NCBI GenBank assembly: GCA_021325135.1
Contig: JAJPHT010000024.1
Coordinates: 1 to 32,164 of the forward strand
From: Pseudomonadota bacterium
GTDB lineage: Archaea > Thermoplasmatota > SW-10-69-26 > JACQPN01 > JAJPHT01
Length of the DNA stretch: 32,164 nucleotides
Reading direction: 5' to 3'
A program made the position numbers and the translations under genes. Positions 16,473 through 25,528 of this stretch are shown one piece after another; within the stretch, counting starts at the first letter, position 1, and each line of letters begins with the position of its first letter. The notes under the pieces are model-generated. The model saw nothing but the letters and a program-made list of their open reading frames with translations. It had not been told where the DNA came from and searched no databases.

Positions 16473-18086
16473 TTACGCCACCTGGATCGCGTACTCCTTG
16501 CCCAGCTCCCCGGGCAGGCCCGCGACGACGACGTGGGGCACGACGTAGAGCGTGCCGCTGGCGGGCATCGTCACGACGGCGCACCACGGGCCGGGCGCGT
16601 GGAAGCTGCCCGTCACCGTCGCGGGGCCGTTGGCGGGGTAATACGCCGTGCCCGCGTAGGACTGGAACGTCGCGTTCGCGTCGGTCGCGTGGCTCACGGA
16701 GTCCGTGTGCAGCGCGGTGTGCGGCGAGGTGAAGAGGCCCTCGCTGCGCCAGCAGAGCGTGACGTTGCTGCCCGCGGCGGCGCTGGCGGGCACGGGGCCC
16801 ACGAGGCTCACGCGCGGCGCCACGAGGATGCTGCGCTCGACGCCGGTGGTCCCGGGGAGCGACGCGCCGGGCATGACGACGTGCGCGACCATGTAGACCG
16901 CGCCGCTCTGGGGCATGGTGAGGTTCGCGCAGAAGGGGCCGGGGAGCGCGAAGCTGCCGTTCAGCGTGGCCGGGCCGTTGTTGGGGTAGATGGCGTTGGG
17001 GTACGCGCTGAACGTCGCGTTGGGGTGGCTCTGCGTGTCCCAGTGGACCGCGGTGTGGACGCTGGTGCCGGTGGCGCCGGGCGTCTCCCAGCAGACGTTG
17101 ACGACGCTGCCCGCGGGAGCGACCTCGGGGAGGTCGCTGGAGAAGTCGACGGCCGGCGGGTTCACGAGGATCACCTGCTCGCCCGAGACCGTGCCGGGGA
17201 GCGCGGCGGTCGAGGTCAGCGCGTGGGCGCGGAAGTAGACCGTCTGGTTGATGGCCTTGATGGCGCCGCAGAAGACGCCGGGGACCTGGAAGTGGCCCGT
17301 CAGCGTCGCGGGCCCGTTGTCGGGATAGACCGCGTTGGCGTAGTCCGAGAAGAGCGTGCTGTTGGGGTGGCTCGCGGGGTCCCAGTGGATGGCGGTGTGG
17401 GCGATGGTGCCCGTGCCTTCGACGCGCCAGCAGACGTTGGCGTCCGCTCCGGCGTCGACCCGCTCGGGGGCCCAGACGACCTCCACGGAGGACACGGTGC
17501 CGTTGGCCAGCGGGTTGCCGGAGATGGCGGAGATGGCAGCCTCGGGCCCGATGACGCCGGGCAGGCCGTTGAAGACGGTGTGGGGCACGACGTAGAGCGT
17601 GCCGTTGAGGGGGATCGAGACGCCCGCGCACCAGACGCCGGGCAGGTCGAACTGCCCCGTGAGGGGGGGCTGGAGGTTCTCAGGGTAGTAGGCATCGCCC
17701 GCGTAGCTCTGGAACGTCGCTCCGGCCTGGCCCGCGTGGCTCACGGTGTCCGTGTGCAGCGCGGTGTGGACCGAGGTGCCGGCGGGCCCGCTGGCCTTCC
17801 AGCACAGGTTGACGACGCTGCCGCCCACGGCCGTGGCGGGGGGCGCGTCGACCCAGCTCACCGTCTGCGACGTGCCGTTGGGCGTCGGGCTGGTGGGCGT
17901 GACGGGGGTCGTGCTCGCCGGCGTGCTGGTGACGGGGGTCGACGAGACGGGGGTGCTGCTCGCCGGGGTCGAGGAGGCGGGCGTCGACGTGGAAGGCGTC
18001 GTGGTGGTCGTGGTGTCGTTGCCCGTGCAGCCCGCCAGCGCCATGGCGGCGACGGCGAGCGCGACGAGGATCGCATGATGCTTCAT
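16473..18086 (-). CDS. Lipoprotein with four tandem His/Cys-motif repeats (putative metal-binding)
   Basis: Lipobox LAGC, Ser/Thr/Pro linker, and four repeats of about 115 aa each with CW...HTAxHxDxxSH...YPxN...FxxPGx(W/F)C...Yxx(P/A)H. Confidence 0.85.
   Translation of the reverse strand: MKHHAILVALAVAAMALAGCTGNDTTTTTTPSTSTPASSTPASSTPVSSTPVTSTPASTTPVTPTSPTPNGTSQTVSWVDAPPATAVGGSVVNLCWKASGPAGTSVHTALHTDTVSHAGQAGATFQSYAGDAYYPENLQPPLTGQFDLPGVWCAGVSIPLNGTLYVVPHTVFNGLPGVIGPEAAISAISGNPLANGTVSSVEVVWAPERVDAGADANVCWRVEGTGTIAHTAIHWDPASHPNSTLFSDYANAVYPDNGPATLTGHFQVPGVFCGAIKAINQTVYFRAHALTSTAALPGTVSGEQVILVNPPAVDFSSDLPEVAPAGSVVNVCWETPGATGTSVHTAVHWDTQSHPNATFSAYPNAIYPNNGPATLNGSFALPGPFCANLTMPQSGAVYMVAHVVMPGASLPGTTGVERSILVAPRVSLVGPVPASAAAGSNVTLCWRSEGLFTSPHTALHTDSVSHATDANATFQSYAGTAYYPANGPATVTGSFHAPGPWCAVVTMPASGTLYVVPHVVVAGLPGELGKEYAIQVA
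17880..18015 (-). repeat. Low-complexity coding repeat (S/T-S/T-T-P-A/V pentapeptides) forming the lipoprotein linker
   Basis: Encodes TTTTTTPSTSTPASSTPASSTPVSSTPVTSTPASTTPVTPTSPTP; degenerate 15-nt periodicity. Confidence 0.7.
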
Positions 18087-18134: not shown

Positions 18135-18222
18135 CCAACTAGGAACGATCGGGTAACCCACGGCTCGTGGGCCTTCCGGCGCGCCCGCAACGTTGATCAG
18201 AGGGGCCGTCGTCGCCCGACCC

Positions 18223-18285
18223 ATGCGCGTCCCCGCCCTCGCGTGCCGGAGGGGTTGTCATCACCGCTCCGTCGTCCTCGCCTAG
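18223..18285 (+). CDS. Putative his operon leader peptide (20 aa, MRVPALACRRGCHHRSVVLA)
   Basis: ATG 18223 to TAG 18285 with tandem His codons CAT CAC, ending 24 nt before the hisG start. TATA-like GTTGAT about 25 nt upstream. Confidence 0.5.
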   Translation: MRVPALACRRGCHHRSVVLA

Positions 18286-18309
18286 GGCTGCCGCGCGGAG
18301 GCTTTTCCC

Positions 18310-19176
18310 GTGCTGAAGATCGCCGTCCCCAACAAGGGGCGCCTGAGCGAAGCGACCCTCGACCTCTTCCGCAAGGCCGGCATGAAGGTGGAGTCGAGCC
18401 CGGAGCGCAAGCTCTACGCGACGGCGCTGGACCGCACCGTGCAGATCCTCTTCGTGCGCGCGACCGACATCCCCGAGTTCGTGGCCGACGGCGTCGCGCA
18501 CCTGGGCGTCACGGGGAAGGACATCCTGGAGGAGCAGCGCAAGTCCGTGCGCGAGATCCTGGACCTCCAGTACGGCTACTGCCGGCTGGTGGTGGCGGTC
18601 CCCGAGGGGAGCCCCATCCGCGACGCCAAGGACGTACCCGACGGCGCGCGCGTCGCCTCCTCCTTCCCCAACCTCACGCACCGCTTCTTCTCCGACGCGG
18701 GCCGGCACGTCAAGGTCGTCGAGGTGAGCGGCGCCACCGAGATCACGCCCCACATCGGCGTCGCGGACCTCATCGTCGACCTCACGAGCAGCGGCAGCAC
18801 GCTGGCCATGAACAACCTGCGCGAGGTGGCGACCATCGTCCACAGCACGGCGCGCGTCGTCGCCAACGAGGCCGCCCTCTGGGACGCCCGCCGCCGGCCG
18901 CAGATCGACGCCATCCTCGCCTCGCTGGAGAGCGTGGTCAATGCTCGCGGCAAGCGCTACCTCATGGCGAACGTCCCCAAGGCCAAGCTCGACGAGGTGC
19001 GCCGCATCCTGCCGGGCATCAGCGGCCCCACCATCATGGACATCCTCAGCCACCCGGAGCTCGTGGCCGCGCACGCCGTCGTGGACGAAGGGGCCCTCTT
19101 CGAGATCGTCAACAAGCTCAAGGCCGTCGGCGCGACCGGCATCCTGGTGCTCCCCATCGAGAGGCTCGTGGCATGA
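18310..19176 (+). CDS. hisG: ATP phosphoribosyltransferase (long form)
   Basis: LKIAVPNKGRL, VRATDIPEFVADG, GATEITPHIGVADLIVDLTSSGSTL, C-terminal regulatory domain (LPGISGPTI). GGAGG SD at 18297-18301. Confidence 0.97.
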   Translation: MLKIAVPNKGRLSEATLDLFRKAGMKVESSPERKLYATALDRTVQILFVRATDIPEFVADGVAHLGVTGKDILEEQRKSVREILDLQYGYCRLVVAVPEGSPIRDAKDVPDGARVASSFPNLTHRFFSDAGRHVKVVEVSGATEITPHIGVADLIVDLTSSGSTLAMNNLREVATIVHSTARVVANEAALWDARRRPQIDAILASLESVVNARGKRYLMANVPKAKLDEVRRILPGISGPTIMDILSHPELVAAHAVVDEGALFEIVNKLKAVGATGILVLPIERLVA

Positions 19177-20456
19177 GGCTCCTCGCCACGGGCCCCCTCA
19201 GGATGCTATCACCCGGCCTGCGCCAGAAGGTGCTGGAGCGCGGCGGGCTGGAGCCCGAGGTCGCGCGGGACGTGGGCGAGATCGCCCGCGCCGTGCGCGA
19301 GCGGGGGGACGCCGCGCTGCGGGAGCTGACCGAGCGCTTCGACGGCGCCAGGCTCGCCACGCTGGAGGTGCCCCGCGCCGAGTGGAGCGCCGCCCTCGCG
19401 CGGCTGCCCCGCGACGTGCAGGAGGCCCTCCGCGCCGCGCACGCCAACGTCGAGCGCTTCCACCGCGCGCTCCTGCCGAAGCCCGTCGAGGTCGAGGTCG
19501 CGCCCGGCCTGCGCGCGGGCCGCCGCGTGCTCCCCCTGGGGCGCGTGGGCGCCTACGTGCCCGGAGGCCGCGCCGCGTACCCCAGCACCGTGATCATGAC
19601 CGCGACGCCCGCCAAGGTCGCCGGCGTGCGCGAGGTCGTCGTCGCCACGCCGCCCGGCAAGGACGGCAAGGTCCCCGACGCCACGCTGGCCGCCTGCGCC
19701 GTCGCGGGCGTCGACCGCGTCTTCGCCGTGGGCGGGGCGCAGGCCGTCTTCGCGCTGGCCTTCGGCACCGACAGCATCCCCCGGGTGGACAAGATCGTGG
19801 GCCCGGGCAACGCCTGGGTCGCCGCCGCCAAGGCCGCGGTGGCCGGGCTCGTCGCCATCGACTCCCCCGCCGGGCCCAGCGAGGTGCTCGTGCTGGCGGA
19901 CGAGGCGGCGGACCCCGAGTGGATCGCCCGCGAGATGCTGGCCCAGGCGGAGCACGACCCCCGCGCCGCGTGCGTCGCCCTCGTCCCGACGCCCGCCCTC
20001 GCCGCGGCGGTGGAGAAGGAGATGGAGCGCGCGCTGGGCCCGCGCCGCGACGTCGTCGAGGCGAGCCTGGCCCGCGCCGGGGCCGTCCTCGTCGCGCAGG
20101 GGGAGGAGGCGCGCGCCTTCGCGGACGCCTACGCGCCCGAGCACCTGGTGGTCCTCACCCGCGAGCCGCGCGCGACGCTGGATTCGCTGTCGAACTACGG
20201 CAGCGCATTCCTGGGCCCCTGGAGCAGCGTGGCGCTGGGCGACTACTGCACCGGGCCCAACCACGTGCTCCCCACGATGGGCCTGGCGCGCGGCTTCAGC
20301 GGCCTCTCGGTGGACGACTTCCTGCGCCGCCCCACGCACCAGGAGGCCTCCCGCGACGCGCTGCGCGCGCTGGCGCCCGTCGCCGAGACGCTGGCCGCCC
20401 TGGAGGGGCTTCCCAACCACGCGGCCGCGCTGCGCGCCCGGAGGGAGCGCGAATGA
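19173..20456 (+). CDS. hisD: Histidinol dehydrogenase
   Basis: [70 protein letters not shown] overlap with hisG. Confidence 0.97.
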
Positions 20457-21508
20457 GCCGCTTCGCGCGCCCCGAGGTGCAGCGCCTGCACGCCTACGAG
20501 GAGGAGGCCGGCGGCGGCCTCAACCTCATGGCGAACACGAACCTCTTCGGGGCGAATCCTGCCATCGAGGCCGCGCTGGTGCGCATGAAGGGGGGCCGCT
20601 TCAGCGAGTACCCCTCCCTCACCAGCGTCGTGCTGCGCAACGCGCTGGGCAAGAAGCTCGACGTGGACCCCGCGTGCGTCGTCACGGGCAACGGCAGCAA
20701 CGACCTCATCGACGTGCTCTGCCGCACGTTCCTCTCGCCGGGCGACCGCGTCGCGTACCACTGGCCCTGCTTCAGCATGATCCCCGTCTTCCTGCGGCTC
20801 AACCACGGCGTGCCCGCCAGCGTCCCCCTGGGCCCCGACTGGTCGCTGGACCCGGACGCCCTCATCGCGGCCGACGGCAAGGTCACCTTCGTCGTGCGCC
20901 CCAACAACCCCACGGGCAACGCCTTCCCGCGACGCGACGTGGAGCGCATCGTGGAGGAGTCGCGCGGCCTCGTGGTCGTGGACGAGGCCTACGTCGAGTT
21001 CCTGGGCGGAGAGAGCTTCGTCACGGAGGTGCGCGAGGGGCGCGACAACCTCGTCGTCCTACGCACGTTCAGCAAGGCCCACGGCATGGCGGGCCTGCGC
21101 GTGGGCTACAGCGTGAGCCACCCCTCCCTCGCCGAGGAGATGACCAAGGTGCGCGGCCCCTTCCGCCTGGACACGCTGGCCGAGACGGCGGCCACCATCG
21201 CGCTGGCGGACGACCGCTATCTCGAAGGCGTCGTGGAGGGCGTGCGCGCCGAGCGCCCCAACCTCAAGCGCCTCCTGGAGGAGAAGGGGTTCACGGTCTT
21301 CCGCAGCGACGCGAACTTCCTGCTGGCGAAGCCCCCCGTGGACCCCAAGCGCCTCGCCGCCGCGCTGGCCGGGCAGGGCGTCCACGTGCGCGACTTCGCG
21401 GGGGACCTCGCGCCCTACGTCCGCATCACCGTGGGCCCGCCCTCCGCCACCGCCCGCCTCCGCGTCGCGCTGGACGAGGCGCTGCCCAAGCTCATGGGGG
21501 GCTCCTGA
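20453..21508 (+). CDS. hisC: Histidinol-phosphate aminotransferase
   Basis: GNGSNDLI, PNNPTG, VVDEAYVEF, LRTFSKAHGMAGLRVGY. ATGA overlap with hisD. Confidence 0.96.
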   Translation: MSRFARPEVQRLHAYEEEAGGGLNLMANTNLFGANPAIEAALVRMKGGRFSEYPSLTSVVLRNALGKKLDVDPACVVTGNGSNDLIDVLCRTFLSPGDRVAYHWPCFSMIPVFLRLNHGVPASVPLGPDWSLDPDALIAADGKVTFVVRPNNPTGNAFPRRDVERIVEESRGLVVVDEAYVEFLGGESFVTEVREGRDNLVVLRTFSKAHGMAGLRVGYSVSHPSLAEEMTKVRGPFRLDTLAETAATIALADDRYLEGVVEGVRAERPNLKRLLEEKGFTVFRSDANFLLAKPPVDPKRLAAALAGQGVHVRDFAGDLAPYVRITVGPPSATARLRVALDEALPKLMGGS

Positions 21509-22113
21509 TGGAGGTCGCCATCCTGGACTACGGCGTGGGCAACCTGCACAGCATCCGCAAGGCGCTGGAGCGCGAGGGCGCCACGCCCCGCCTCGTCTCG
21601 GAGCCCAAGGCCGTCCTCGACGCGCCCGCCATCGTCCTCCCCGGGGTGGGCGCCTTCGGGGACGCCGCGGCCAAGCTGCTGCCCTACCGCGACGCGCTCT
21701 TCGAGGCGCTCGACGCCGGCAAGCCGCTGCTGGGCGTCTGCCTGGGGATGCAGCTCCTCTTCGAGCGCAGCGAGGAGAGCCCCGGCGCGCGGGGCCTGGG
21801 CTACGTCCGCGGCGAGGTGCGCCGCCTGCGCCACGAGAAGCTCCCCCAGATCGGGTGGAACGTCCTCAACCACGTGGAGGGCGAGCCGCTCTTCGCGGGG
21901 CTGCCCGACGGCGCGCACGTCTACTACGTGAACAGCTTCGCCTGCGCGCCGCACGAGCCCGTCACGGTCGCGACCAGCACCTACGGCGACACCTTCACCG
22001 CCGCCATCCGAAAGCGCCATGCCTGGGGCGTCCAGTTCCATCCCGAGAAGTCCGGCGAGGCCGGGCTGCGGATGATCCGCAACTTCGTAGCGTTCGCCAA
22101 GGAGACCGCCTGA
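21508..22113 (+). CDS. hisH: Imidazole glycerol phosphate synthase glutaminase subunit
   Basis: ILDYGVGNLHS, LPGVGAF, GVCLGMQLL, PQIGWN, QFHPEKS. TGATG coupling to hisC. Confidence 0.97.
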   Translation: MEVAILDYGVGNLHSIRKALEREGATPRLVSEPKAVLDAPAIVLPGVGAFGDAAAKLLPYRDALFEALDAGKPLLGVCLGMQLLFERSEESPGARGLGYVRGEVRRLRHEKLPQIGWNVLNHVEGEPLFAGLPDGAHVYYVNSFACAPHEPVTVATSTYGDTFTAAIRKRHAWGVQFHPEKSGEAGLRMIRNFVAFAKETA

Positions 22114-22114
22114 C

Positions 22115-22840
22115 ATGGAAGTGATCCCGGCCATCGACATCCGCAACGGCGCGTGCGTCCAGCTCGTCGGGGGCGACATCACCAAGGAGAAGGTGCACAT
22201 CGACGACCCCGTCGCGCAGGCGCGGAGGTTCATCGACATGGGCGCCAAGTGGATCCACATCGTGGACCTCGACCGCGCGCTGGGCACCGGCAACAACATG
22301 CAGGTCATCCGCCGCATCATGGAGGTCCCCGGGGCCCGCTACCAGGTGGGCGGCGGCATCCGCTTCACCGAGGACATCGACGACCTGCTCGCCGCCAACG
22401 CGGCCCGCGTCGTCGTGGGCACCCGCGCCGTGACCGACGAGAAGTGGTTCGCCCACGTCTGCGAGCGCTACGGCGGCCGCGTCTTCGCCGCGGTGGACGC
22501 GCGCGGCGACGAGATCCTCATCAAGGGGTGGACCGAGAGCAGCGGCAAGAAGCTCCTCCCCTGGGCCAAGGAGGCCGACAAGCTGGGCGTGGGGGGCCTC
22601 CTCTACACCGACGTCGCGCTGGAGGGCCGCATGAGCGGCGTCAACGCCACGGCCGTGGAGGCGCTGGCCAAGAGCGTGGACGTCCCCGTGGTGGCCTCCG
22701 GCGGCGTCTCCAGCATGGAGGACCTCCAGGAGCTGTGGGAGGCCCACGCGTGGGGCGTCGTCGTCGGCATGGCCGCCTACACCGGCAAGCTCGACGTGGC
22801 GCACGCCATCCGGCACTTCGCGAGGAAGGGCGGGCGCTGA
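22115..22840 (+). CDS. hisA: ProFAR isomerase
   Basis: VIPAIDIRNGACVQL, HIVDLD, QVGGGIR, VVGTRAV, YTDV..EGRMSG, ASGGVSS. Confidence 0.96.
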   Translation: MEVIPAIDIRNGACVQLVGGDITKEKVHIDDPVAQARRFIDMGAKWIHIVDLDRALGTGNNMQVIRRIMEVPGARYQVGGGIRFTEDIDDLLAANAARVVVGTRAVTDEKWFAHVCERYGGRVFAAVDARGDEILIKGWTESSGKKLLPWAKEADKLGVGGLLYTDVALEGRMSGVNATAVEALAKSVDVPVVASGGVSSMEDLQELWEAHAWGVVVGMAAYTGKLDVAHAIRHFARKGGR

Positions 22841-22854
22841 TGCTCCGCCTCCTC

Positions 22855-22951
22855 CGCCTCTGGCGGGAAAGGACCCGGATCTCCGAATCTCCGGATCGGG
22901 TCCTTGCTGATTCCGAGATTCGGAGATTCGGGGCTCCCCGCGCCGGAGGCG
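22855..22951. repeat. Long imperfect palindrome between hisA and hisB built from 8-nt units
   Basis: Inner arms CCGGATCTCCGAATCTCCGGATC (22875-22897) and GATTCCGAGATTCGGAGATTCGG (22909-22931), 20/23 complementary. Outer stem CGCCTCTGGCG (22855-22865) / CGCCGGAGGCG (22941-22951). Confidence 0.78.
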
Positions 22952-22978
22952 CAGCGGGCCAGCCGAGGGGGACCTGAG

Positions 22979-23575
22979 ATGGAGCGCGAGACCAAGGAGA
23001 CCCTCGTGCGCGCGGACGTGAAGCGCGGCTTGGGCAAGGCGATGGTGTTCTTCGAGGGCCTCCATGCGGGCAGCGAGCCCGGCCACGACCCCGGCAAGGG
23101 GCACGTCTCGGGGCGCGCCACGTTCGCCAAGCACATGCTGGAGACGCTGGCCAAGTGGAGCGGCTACGACGTCGCCCTCCACGTGACGAGCAAGGACGGC
23201 CTGGAGCACCACGCCATCGAGGACGGCGCCATCGTCCTGGGCCGCGCGCTGCGCGCCGCCATCGACGTGGGCGCCATCGAGCGCACGGCCTCGGTGGCCA
23301 TGCCCATGGACGACGCGCTGGTCCTCGTCGCGCTGGACCTCGTGGAGCGCCCCTACTACGAGGGCCCGCTCCCCGACCCCCTCATGGACCACGTCATGCG
23401 GAGCCTCGCCACCGAGGGGGGCTTCACGCTGCACGTCCTCACGCTGCGCGGGCGCGACCCGCACCACGTCGTGGAGGCCGCCTTCAAGGGGCTCGCCCTC
23501 TGCCTGGACCGCGCGACGCGGCCCCGGGCGGACCGGCTCTCCACCAAGGGCGCGGCCGAGGTCCGGACGGGGTAG
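22979..23575 (+). CDS. hisB: Imidazoleglycerol-phosphate dehydratase
   Basis: RETKET, HML, HHAIED, PMDDAL, HHVVEAAFK, STKG. ATG 22979 preceded by GAGGGGG. Confidence 0.93.
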   Translation: MERETKETLVRADVKRGLGKAMVFFEGLHAGSEPGHDPGKGHVSGRATFAKHMLETLAKWSGYDVALHVTSKDGLEHHAIEDGAIVLGRALRAAIDVGAIERTASVAMPMDDALVLVALDLVERPYYEGPLPDPLMDHVMRSLATEGGFTLHVLTLRGRDPHHVVEAAFKGLALCLDRATRPRADRLSTKGAAEVRTG

Positions 23576-23578
23576 GGC

Positions 23579-24076
23579 TCAGCGCGGGATCATGGACGCC
23601 GCGGCCCTCTCCATGCCCGCCAAGTCGGGCTCGCTGAGGCCCAGCTGCTTCATCACGGCCCGCGTGTCGCGGAGGCGCGTCATGGAGCGGATGCGGCCCT
23701 CGGCGTCGAGGGTCGCGAAGAGCGCGCCCAGCGTGTCGACGGTCCTGCCGCGGAGCGGGAGCCTCGTCTGCCCGACGACCACGTCGTCCACGTAGGTCAT
23801 GCGGATCCTCGCGAGGGCGGAGAAGCCGTCGTTCCCCAGGAAGACGTACCTCGGCTCGATCTCCAGGTCCCCGACCGCTCCGAAGCCCCCCGCGACCCCC
23901 GAAAGGCGTCGGATGGCGTCCTTCCCGCGGATGACGGGAAGCTCCCCTTCGGTGCGGATCTCGGCGTCGTCGGCGAAGAAGGCGAGCATGCGGTCCAGGT
24001 CCCGGGACCGGGCGGCGTCCAGGAAGGCGTCGAAGTCGAAGCGCGGGCGCCCGACGGGGCGTGGTGTGGCGGCCAT
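23579..24076 (-). CDS. SnoaL/NTF2-like family protein
   Basis: F.DA...[28 protein letters not shown]...G...ATLDAEGRI...RD...VMKQLGL. Confidence 0.8.
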
Positions 24077-24154: not shown

Positions 24155-24919
24155 ATGCTCAAGAAGCGCATCGTCCCCTGCCTCGACGTCAAGGGGGGCC
24201 GCGTCGTGAAGGGCGTCAAGTTCGAGAACCTCCGCGACGTGGGCGACCCCGCCGAGCTGGCGGCTCGCTACTCCGACGAGGGCGCAGACGAGGTGGTGTT
24301 CCTGGACATCGGCGCCTCCAAGGAGGAGCGCCGCACCACGCTGGACGTCGTGCGCCGCACGGCGGAGCGGCTGTTCATCCCGCTCACGGTGGGCGGAGGC
24401 GTGCGCAGCGTCGAGGACGTGCAGGACGCGCTCAACGCGGGCGCCGACAAGGTGAGCATGAACACGGCCGCCGTGCTGCGCCCGGACCTGATCGCCGAGT
24501 GCAGCGAGCGCTTCGGCGCGCAGTGCGTCGTCCTCGCGCTGGACGCCAAGCAGGTCGCCGCGGACCGCTGGGAGGTCTTCACCCACGGCGGCAGCAAGGC
24601 CACGGGCCTCGACGCGGTGGGATGGGCGAAGCGCGCCGTGGAGCTTGGCGCAGGCGAGATCCTCCTCACGAGCATGGACCGCGACGGCACGCGCGCCGGC
24701 TACGACCTCGCGCTCACGCGCGCCGTCGCCGCGGCCGCGAAGGTGCCCGTCGTCGCGTCGGGCGGCGCGGGCTCGCTGGAGCACTTCGCCGAGGTGCTGC
24801 AGCCGGGCTGCGCGGACGCCGCGCTGGCGGCGACGCTCTTCCACGAGCGCGCGCTCACGGTGCGGCAGGTCAAGGAGTTCGTCGCGAAGCGCGGCGTGCG
24901 CGTGCGGGAGGGGCTCTAA
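24155..24919 (+). CDS. hisF: Imidazole glycerol phosphate synthase cyclase subunit
   Basis: [59 protein letters not shown]. Confidence 0.98.
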
Positions 24920-25528
24920 TTGGATATCGATTGGCAGAAGGGCGGCGGCCTCGTCCCCGTGGTGACGCAGGACGCGGTCACGGGCGACGTGCTGATGCTC
25001 GCCTACGTGGACCGCGAGGCGCTGGAGGCCACCCGGGCCACGGGCTTCATGCACTACCATTCGCGCTCGCGGGGCAAGCTGTGGAAGAAGGGCGAGGAGA
25101 GCGGCCACGTGCAGGAGGTCGTCGCGCTGGAATTGGACTGCGACGGCGACGCCATCCTCGCCAAGGTGCGCCAGACGGGCCCCGCGTGCCACACGGGGGA
25201 GGCGTCCTGCTTCCACAACCGGATGCACGGCTCGGGCGACGTCGTGCTGCGCGAGCTCGTGCGCGTCATGCGCGAGCGCAAGGAGCGCCCCAACCCCGCG
25301 TCGCACACGAGCAAGCTCTTCGCCAGCGAGAACCTCCGCCTCAAGAAGGTCGTCGAGGAGGCGGGCGAGGTCATCATGGCCGCCAAGGACCACGACAAGG
25401 AGCGCCTCGCCGAGGAGGCCGCGGACGAGGTGTTCCACCTCCTGGCGGTGCTGCTGGCCGAGGGCGTCGAGCCGCGCGCGGTGCTTGAGGTGCTGGCGAA
25501 GCGCCGCATGCCGCCCAAGACGGGGTAG
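24920..25528 (+). CDS. hisIE: Bifunctional phosphoribosyl-AMP cyclohydrolase / phosphoribosyl-ATP pyrophosphatase
   Basis: [32 protein letters not shown], then His[15 protein letters not shown]...EAAD..FH. TTG start immediately after the hisF stop. Confidence 0.95.

Follow-up and report, generated by a model that had tools for sequence, protein, structure and literature searches.

A small histidine-codon ORF in a conserved frame relation to hisG in uncultured Thermoplasmatota: a candidate leader-peptide sensor

Ribosome-mediated sensing of amino acids by leader peptides is a textbook mechanism of bacteria, and the histidine biosynthesis operon on contig JAJPHT010000024.1 (assembly GCA_021325135.1) raises the question of whether an archaeon could sense histidine in a related way. 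The stretch analysed here, positions 1 to 32,164 of the forward strand, is referred to as the window. Its contig (C16) belongs to a metagenome-assembled genome (MAG) of 3.77 Mb and 72% G+C that is deposited as a Pseudomonadota bacterium and placed by GTDB in the Thermoplasmatota (SW-10-69-26; JACQPN01; JAJPHT01); a gene for ribosomal protein S3Ae was detected in it, which marks the organism as an archaeon. Directly upstream of hisG, the first gene of the unit hisGDCHAB, lies an open reading frame (ORF) of 20 codons with two adjacent His codons. Does this ORF report the supply of charged His-tRNA to the operon and, if so, by what step could the report reach hisG? We consider it probable that the small ORF is a His-tRNA sensor for the his operon. 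For the output step we propose, more tentatively, a +1 shift of the ribosome at the His codons.

The small ORF, its promoter and its histidine codons

The leader was compared across the order, represented by 15 species genomes, and the class, represented by 21, together with contigs of six relatives found through the protein database; handles beginning with G, L, C and f denote genomes, loci, contigs and families. A metagenome scan by hisG alignment gave relatives of at most 55% identity only, and was uninformative for the order; it revealed the bacterial poly-His leaders discussed below. A long leader with an equivalent ORF of 13–25 codons is present in 10 of the 15 species genomes (G000–G005, G007, G008, G009 and G011; examples are L003:1414-1521:+ and L004:2341-2454:-) and in five of the six further contigs (L123, L124, L125, L130 and L131). 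Three genomes (G006, G012 and G013) carry a short form in which the hisG ATG overlaps a His codon, and two (G010 and G014) have a leaderless hisG with no leader ORF. The sixth contig, L126, has a small ORF that lacks His codons and whose stop overlaps the hisG ATG.

What the leader peptides have in common is a Met-Arg start and the His codons together with a core that precedes them; the remainder varies freely. The His codons stand two or three in a row in twelve of the 15 long leaders, are spaced as His-x-His or His-x-x-His in two and number only one in the last, so that the run of cognate codons typical of hisL-type leaders is represented by two His in the window and by one to three clustered His in the relatives, always in the frame of the start codon. 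These codons lie 24–42 nt from the ORF start, a distance that varies among leaders only by multiples of three, and their sole variation among relatives is C or T in the third position. The ORF of every leader also ends early, 1–10 codons past the His codons and always upstream of the Shine-Dalgarno (SD) sequence of hisG, though stops are rare.

The initial annotation, made from the letters of the window, had cautioned that two His codons could arise by chance. In a single genome such an occurrence is indeed not negligible, as 17 of 1184 intergenic short ORFs (1.4%) contain a His pair, and the other examples checked precede unrelated genes such as those for flagellin and cobalamin adenosyltransferase. 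The small ORF is nevertheless more than a chance event because it is conserved before hisG in the relatives: the hisG upstream regions examined do contain conserved short ORFs with His codons, and this makes chance unlikely.

The geometry of the promoter agrees with an ORF at the head of the operon mRNA, as had been predicted; the relatives keep the ORF, its frame, its His codons and a TATA spacing of about 30 nt. The initial annotation had correctly recognised a TATA-like element, although it placed it about 25 nt before the ATG; the box TTGATCA in fact begins exactly 30 nt upstream. Among 16 related leaders an AT-rich 7-mer lies exactly 30 nt before the ORF start in ten and 29–36 nt before it in five more, and in the sixteenth, L003, a homologous TTGATCC at −30 had been overlooked by the automatic pick. 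In 13 of these 16 the His-codon frame begins at the first ATG or GTG of the expected zone, and each leader has AUG or GUG at its predicted 5′ end. Throughout the genome, an AT peak stands at −29 to −26 relative to the start codons of genes preceded by a gap, and leaderless mRNAs are accordingly the rule for this archaeon. The small ORF is arranged like a leaderless gene, and on this reasoning its translation would be hard to avoid.

Around the His codons the leader has a composite structure that the initial annotation had overlooked, as it had the frame relation to hisG described below. An internal SD-like element (GGAGG at 18248-18252) is followed by 3 nt, one codon and then CAT, the spacing seen in the frameshift site of bacterial prfB. 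Its predicted binding to the anti-SD sequence is as strong as that of the true hisG SD. In most leaders of the order the element starts 11 nt before the first His codon; of 16 leaders, nine have it at −8 to −12 from that codon and another has it at −14 to −17. The core consists of two or three N-G-G triplets, variable in their first base, then G-R-T, a free codon and CAT CAC, a pattern that is one of conserved nucleotides and not of conserved peptide. No comparable combination of an SD-like element with His codons was found elsewhere in the intergenic DNA of the genome; it is unique to hisG.

The choice of codons is equally marked. Although only 4.8% of the genome's His codons are CAT, every member of the genus has CAT as the first His codon of its leader. 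The adjoining codons ending in T (GGT or GAT, and TGT or CGT) are also rare, GGT and TGT accounting for 1.5% and 1.9% of their sets. The genome has a single tRNA-His gene, with anticodon GTG, and CAU is therefore decoded by wobble; it would be decoded slowly.

The frame relation to hisG and a proposed +1 path

The small ORF shares its frame with hisG in 14 of the 15 long leaders, even though the distance from the His codons to the hisG start takes values of 48, 51, 54, 57, 60, 63 and 81 nt in these in-frame leaders. The corresponding p value is 2e-6 when calculated naively and about 1e-4 when some 11 independent length changes are counted. Two other causes of this relation were considered. Read-through of the leader stop was rejected, all three stop codons being used and G004 having tandem stops; an antisense gene imposing indels of 3 nt was set aside without a specific test, a GC3-based gene caller having placed no gene on either strand of the intergenic gap that contains the leader.

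The in-frame relation would gain a meaning from the +1 frame of the small ORF, which runs on to the hisG start. It is open from the His codons onwards in all 16 leaders, and in the 15 long leaders its first stop falls 1, 4, 7 or 11 nt past the first base of the hisG start; this stop is TGA in 14 of them and TAA in L006. The stop lies at +4 in the genus, at +1 (as N-TGA) in L009, L010, L014 and L130, and at +7 in L013, so that a stop–start overlap of the kind associated with translational coupling is provided by the +1 frame only. Among the genes of the genome 31% have a +1-frame stop at +1 to +7, and the +4 form is found in 1.2%; a stop at +1 to +7 occurs in two of seven relatives without the small ORF. 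In hisG the stop is created by the use of CTG before AAG, where the genome prefers CTC (72% compared with 22%) before codons starting with A.

Two wider tendencies were noted in the genome. CTG is avoided before A-starting codons, where it accounts for 22% as against 37% overall, and A follows the start codon in 29% of predicted genes, which gives N-TGA in the +1 frame.

From the 5′ end onward, the leader in the window has no ATG, GTG or TTG in its +1 frame, and the same is true of eight of the 15 long leaders, the window's included. Ordinary initiation therefore cannot enter that frame. In the short forms the hisG ATG overlaps the His codon as C-ATG, so that hisG itself is the +1 frame. In L126, which has lost its His codons, the small ORF is apparently the +1 frame as judged by a common GTTCAC motif, and it stops at the ATGA of hisG.

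For the output step our tentative proposal, which we judge to fall just short of an even chance, is a +1 shift with coupling to hisG. The ribosome would load on the 5′-terminal AUG and meet a slow spot, the rare CAU followed by CAC, both read by the sole tRNA-His. There the SD-like GGAGG, 3 nt behind the P-site codon, would pull on the tail of the 16S rRNA, as in bacterial prfB. With ample charged His-tRNA the ribosome would keep its frame and stop six codons further on, 24 nt before hisG (21–62 nt upstream among the leaders), and hisG would be translated weakly from its own, partly paired, initiation region. When His-tRNA is scarce, the waiting ribosome would enter the +1 frame, possibly assisted by a second ribosome queued on the stretch of about 36 nt between start and His codons. 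This stretch, 33–42 nt long, would have room for exactly one extra footprint of 27 nt, the size reported for archaeal ribosomes (PMC7261190). Having shifted, the ribosome would pass the 0-frame stop, melt a small hairpin in which the SD and T tract pair with hisG codons 3–4, terminate at the TGA over hisG codons 2–3 and reinitiate on hisG, like ribosomes at the many ATGA junctions in the genome. Where hisG is itself the +1 frame, as in the short variants and some other families, the shift would yield HisG directly. Both a slow codon in the A site and a short SD spacing have been established as factors that promote +1 shifts (PMC5009743), and ribosome collisions are known to alter frameshifting (PMC6815119).

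The junctions that serve as the model for reinitiation are common in this organism. Among same-strand gene pairs of the genome (G000) a 4-nt overlap of stop and start is the commonest arrangement, with 272 cases compared with 24–46 for other small spacings, and the hisG/hisD and hisD/hisC junctions belong to this class.

Comparison with other families of the Thermoplasmatota extends the frame relation beyond the order. Of 250 genomes, 78 have hisG, and 40 upstream regions were read. Leaderless-type ORFs with His codons, of unrelated sequence, occur in four other families of high G+C content. In L167 and L172 the ORF is in the hisG frame and the +1 frame ends in an ATGA overlap; in L169 it is in frame as well, and the +1 frame stops 10 nt inside hisG; for L170, L171 and L176 the open +1 frame is hisG itself. 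A notable arrangement is that of L176:170-340 (minus strand; G172, family f23). From the upstream stop up to the conserved N-terminal strand its hisG frame contains none of ATG, GTG and TTG; hisG occupies the +1 frame of a leaderless ORF, 24 codons long, whose Trp-Asp-x-Val-His core resembles that of G011 and G005. Barring an error or indel in the MAG, or a non-canonical start, HisG of L176 would need a +1 shift from the small ORF. The frame design is kept in 11 of 13 roughly independent lineages (p about 1e-4 under a chance null of about 31%). It is possible, if doubtful, that several archaeal lineages sense His by programmed +1 frameshifting at hungry codons in a leaderless mini-ORF, and that some, such as L176 in G172, make HisG solely in this way.

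The sister family f6 has hisG without any leader, and the low-G+C families f8 and f41 have short SD leaders and no small ORF. Two further arrangements were seen among these families. In four f41 genomes (L157–L160) about 70 nt that surround the TATA box and 5′ untranslated region, 40–110 nt before hisG, form a near-identical block that ends with a GGGTTATCAT motif abutting the hisG ATG; this motif is similar to the core that precedes the His codons of the window's leader. In L173 (G185, family f47) an SD precedes a His-free mini-ORF of four codons, about 80 nt upstream of the conserved N-terminus of hisG, and the TGA of this mini-ORF overlaps the GTG of an N-terminally extended hisG (GTGA), another form of upstream coupling.

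Several observations count against a frameshift output. No slippery P-site codon was found in the leaders: the codon before the His pair varies (Cys, Arg, Leu, Ser or Gly) and re-pairs in +1 at no more than one or two of three positions, so that the shift would have to proceed without P-site slippage, unlike that of prfB. The SD-like element is not present in the leaders of the other families, and its predicted binding was calculated with an anti-SD sequence taken from general knowledge, the MAG being without a 16S rRNA 3′ end. hisG has a strong SD of its own, and coupling would be of consequence only if translation is hindered by the small hairpin that covers the initiation region. An open +1 path is expected by chance in a proportion of 0.5–0.9 per leader at 72% G+C; since open frames are so common, openness alone is weak evidence. 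Within the order L006 is an exception to the frame relation, with a His-to-start distance of 89 nt, out of frame, and its +1 stop TAA 11 nt into hisG. Elsewhere L168, although in frame, has its +1 stop 34 nt into hisG and is a weak case, and in L174 the ORF's own stop overlaps the hisG start, which is a different design. Finally, all the sequences are MAGs that are related to one another, and the p values are rough.

Table 1. Positions in the window of the hisG leader elements and of the his genes.
Feature	Position	Strand	Remarks
TATA-like box TTGATCA, his operon promoter	18193..18199	+	begins 30 nt before the small-ORF ATG
20-codon leader ORF (0 frame), leaderless-type, in frame with hisG	18223..18285	+	ATG at 18223; ends 24 nt before hisG
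Internal SD-like element GGAGGGG	18248..18254	+	6 nt before first His codon, 3 nt before the preceding codon
Tandem His codons CAT CAC (proposed sensor and shift site)	18259..18264	+	conserved; rare first codon
+1 path, His codons to TGA over hisG codons 2-3	18260..18316	+	18 codons open; TGA 18314-18316
0-frame stop TAG of leader ORF	18283..18285	+	6 codons past the His codons
GC-alternating pre-SD block and hisG SD	18291..18301	+	SD GGAGG 18297-18301; block conserved across genus
T tract between SD and hisG start	18303..18306	+	T4-T5 in genus, G007 and G011
hisG (ATP phosphoribosyltransferase, long form)	18310..19176	+	GTG start; Pfam HisG and HisG_C
hisD, hisC, hisH, hisA, hisB (remainder of leader-headed unit)	19173..23575	+	NCBIfam and Pfam
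SnoaL-like gene	23579-24076	-	splits his cluster between hisB and hisF
hisF-hisIE	24155-25528	+	own leaderless-type promoter; TATA-like box about 30 nt before ATG; no small ORF

RNA structure and other explanations of the leader

The initial annotation had proposed a translational attenuator, in which CTCCG just after the His codons (18267-18271) pairs either with an upstream CGGAG (18247-18251) or with a second CGGAG (18296-18300) overlapping the hisG SD, the latter pairing enclosing an inner stem of GTCCT (18274-18278) and AGGGC (18284-18288). A ribosome stalled at the His codons was expected to cover CTCCG and so free the SD. The coordinates given for the ORF, the His codons, the 5-mers, the inner stem and the SD are all correct, and so is the statement that no hairpin terminator precedes hisG: a search for a hairpin with a U-run found a T4–T5 run only, with no conserved hairpin before it, and the tract is missing in several relatives.

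The switch itself fares differently. In the window, composition-matched shuffles pair on average more strongly than either CTCCG pairing (z of +1.5 and +0.6), and over 15 leaders the pairings are at expectation, with a mean z of −0.3 and 0.0; they reflect local composition, which is G-rich ahead of the His codons and at the SD and C-rich after the His codons. Excess structure was sought in whole leaders and none was seen (mean z −0.24 relative to dinucleotide shuffles), and the segment from the His codons to the SD is slightly less stable than shuffles (mean z +0.47). In the folding models a 27-nt ribosome footprint at the His codons alters neither the pairing of the SD nor the opening energy of the hisG initiation region, and folding with and without a footprint gives no consistent effect across three states. 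RNAalifold finds no mutually exclusive set of hairpins that would correspond to conserved or covarying alternative stems, and no hairpin-based alternative is supported by the fold tests of the leaders. A search of Rfam gave no match to any family, RF00514 included, at the gathering threshold or at E values up to 10.

Two other pairings may be real, although support from the models is weak. The first 6–8 nt of the transcript are complementary to the pre-SD block, more so in cognate than in non-cognate pairs (permutation p 0.002) and weakly better than in shuffles (mean z −0.7). RNAalifold also pairs the G-rich core with hisG codons 2–7, with consistent changes on one side only. At the initiation region itself, hisG is alone among the 553 SD-bearing genes of the genome in having T4 or more directly after the SD, and this tract can pair with GAAGA of hisG codons 3–4 to form a small hairpin over the initiation region.

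These pairings are relevant to an alternative in which RNA is remodelled without recoding: stalled, and perhaps queued, ribosomes would cover segments that pair with the hisG initiation region, freeing the SD, and the frame relation would be incidental. The conserved ORF, its His codons and an SD-like pause element also fit this reading, the minimum-energy fold of the window pairs leader nucleotides 2–22 with the SD and start codon, the complementarity of the 5′ end to the pre-SD block and the core–hisG pairing are in its favour, and the poly-Cys leaders of mycobacteria provide a precedent (bioRxiv 10.1101/834739). Against it, the modelled opening energy is unchanged with a ribosome at the His codons and slightly higher with the whole 5′ part covered (11.9, 12.2 and 12.8 kcal/mol), the SD is not more unpaired in the stalled state, the candidate pairings stay near shuffled expectation and the leaders are no more structured than shuffles. 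Remodelling also leaves unexplained why the spacer changes in steps of 3 nt and why a +1 stop lies on the hisG start; we regard it as unlikely, though it deserves to be kept in mind. Transcription attenuation at the T tract, its efficiency set by the position of the leader ribosome, appears very improbable. Archaeal RNA polymerase terminates at oligo-T with no need for a hairpin, T5 and longer runs are 40- to 50-fold enriched outside coding regions, and the tract after the SD, unique among the 553 SD-bearing genes, is conserved in the genus and in G007 and G011. However, it is missing in G003, G005, G008, G009 and L130, its distance from the ORF stop varies from 16 to 34 nt, so that there is no fixed geometry between ribosome and polymerase, and no conserved hairpin lies upstream of it. 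A stall far upstream would moreover favour termination, which is the wrong direction, and pairing with hisG codons 3–4 explains the tract equally well.

The remaining explanations differ in what they make of the ORF. Weak initiation within the +1 frame, driven by the SD-like GGAGG at a near-cognate ATC (18260) or, in some relatives, an ATG, would create a second small ORF that is coupled to hisG through the stop–start overlap and occluded by traffic on the His-codon ORF. The element stands 7 nt before the ATC, an ideal spacing, it acts as the SD for the hisG ATG at the same spot in G013, G006 and G012, and G008 and G011 have a +1-frame ATG just before the His codons. Yet ATC is a very poor start codon, the ATG of G008 and G011 abuts the SD-like core without a spacer, and a His-stalled ribosome would cover the site, so that starvation would lower hisG expression, the wrong direction for a biosynthetic operon; the conserved frame of the His codons with the 5′ start would also go unexplained, and we consider internal initiation improbable. 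A translated relic that no longer responds to His, whether a bacterial-type attenuator acquired with hisG or an old N-terminal extension, would at most set a constant level of hisG. Such an origin is suggested by the grouping of hisG (support 95) with a bacterial clade bearing poly-His leaders and hairpin terminators, by the lack of a leader in G010, G014 and family f6 and by the loss of His codons in L126; but the rare CAT, the SD-like spacing, the 30-nt TATA spacing and the frame persist through many indels, at a hisG protein identity of about 60%, and other families repeat the design although their leader sequences are unrelated, which makes a relic rather improbable. Finally, the G-rich core and CATCAC might be the RNA or DNA binding site of some regulator, with the ORF untranslated and a by-product of high G+C. 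That the core is conserved as nucleotides (NGG triplets) and not as peptide, and that open frames are frequent at 72% G+C, would fit such a site. It is hard to reconcile with the AUG or GUG at the predicted 5′ end of every leader in a genome where leaderless mRNAs are the norm, with start-to-His distances that vary by threes and with an early 0-frame stop in every leader; there is no Rfam match and the motif occurs nowhere else in a comparable intergenic setting. An untranslated site is to our mind hardly credible.

Genomic setting, known systems and significance

The upstream neighbour of hisG is a divergent, lipoprotein-like gene on the minus strand that starts at 18086. Junctions within the hisG-D-C-H-A-B unit are of the forms ATGA, ATGA, TGATG and TGACATG. 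The first 24 nt of hisG are nearly invariant as nucleotides across the genus. In L031 / L007 (G001 contig C121) the match to hisG is broken into two by about 48 additional nt that follow codon 39, either an insertion or an assembly problem inside the gene.

No similar leader was found before other pathway genes of the genome: trpE is leaderless with no Trp-codon ORF, hisS is internal to an operon and hisF is leaderless, and other short ORFs with tandem codons sit before unrelated genes. Just upstream of the TATA box of the leaderless trpE (L147:4703-4716, G000 contig C35) is a perfect 14-nt palindrome, AGAATGC/GCATTCT, and a half-site-like GGAATGC follows the box; the palindrome looks like an operator for a trp repressor or activator.

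The closest bacterial counterpart of the small ORF is the enterobacterial hisL attenuator (RF00514), which is likewise a short ORF of cognate His codons at the head of the his operon transcript, where the ribosome senses charged tRNA-His. The archaeal leader differs in having two or three His codons as against five to seven, in being leaderless in type, in lacking competing hairpins and a hairpin terminator and in giving no match to RF00514. A nearer evolutionary link comes from the hisG tree, in which the order and its sister family f6 join (support 95) a bacterial clade (support 100) that includes Gemmatimonadota and Myxococcota. The hisG of the window is 54–57% identical to the bacterial genes compared with 48–52% to those of f6, and a transfer of hisG between the domains, in either direction, is likely on this phylogenetic ground. 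In this bacterial sister clade (Gemmatimonadota, Myxococcota and metagenome contigs) we find unannotated poly-His attenuators in L035–L038, L043–L045, L047, L055, L061, L062 and L065. These leaders have 24–31 codons with four to six His, lie about 80–115 nt before hisG, carry a conserved hairpin after the His run, fold to about −80 kcal/mol and have a long-stem terminator with T7–8. Only one of the 12 is in the hisG frame, and a match to RF00514, sought in three of them, was not found. The archaeal leader may descend from a bacterial attenuator or have arisen independently; the bacterial link offers a rare view of how a regulatory device could be rebuilt after crossing between domains.

In other respects the archaeal leader resembles two leaderless systems, the poly-Cys short ORFs of mycobacteria (Canestrari et al., bioRxiv 10.1101/834739) and the leader peptides of Deinococcus deserti (PMC4007540), which share with it an ORF at the mRNA's 5′ end (here predicted), cognate codons and the lack of a terminator. 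In those systems, which are bacterial, a stalled ribosome blocks a duplex that hides the ribosome binding site and the ORF has no frame relation to the downstream gene, whereas modelling of the archaeal leader finds no such relieved duplex and the frame relation is present. With the +1 frameshift of prfB (release factor 2) it has in common an SD-like element 3 nt before the P-site codon, a 0 frame that ends early, a slow A-site codon that would report a shortage of the regulated factor (slowness being presumed for CAT) and, in the short variants and in L170, L171 and L176, a +1 frame that gives the product directly. It differs in that the slow codon of prfB is a stop and its P site the slippery CUU-U, whereas here a sense His codon follows a P site that is not slippery; and the +1 frame of prfB encodes the product, where that of the long archaeal form would deliver the ribosome to a stop–start overlap.

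Frameshifting at hungry codons or tandem rare codons (PMC5009743) and its modulation by collisions (PMC6815119) likewise involve one aminoacyl-tRNA that becomes limiting at a rare codon and a trailing ribosome. Shifts at hungry codons have been regarded as errors or laboratory phenomena, and the shift in Escherichia coli pheL is apparently incidental (PMC5009743); the archaeal arrangement, in contrast, looks selected for regulation. Full-text searches of the literature found no report of a leader-peptide amino-acid sensor in archaea, and a review of recoding gives few archaeal cases of frameshifting, none linked to amino-acid sensing (PMC5009743). The his genes of most Euryarchaeota are not arranged in operons (PMC9413887).

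The result is a conserved, sequence-defined sensor candidate in uncultured Thermoplasmatota. If the proposed +1 shift is correct, this would be the first case in which the supply of an amino acid is read out by programmed recoding. Attenuation would then be possible with an RNA polymerase that does not use hairpin terminators, in a recoding-based, hairpin-free counterpart of the bacterial mechanism, and some hisG genes, having no start codon of their own, would prove to be mis-annotated.

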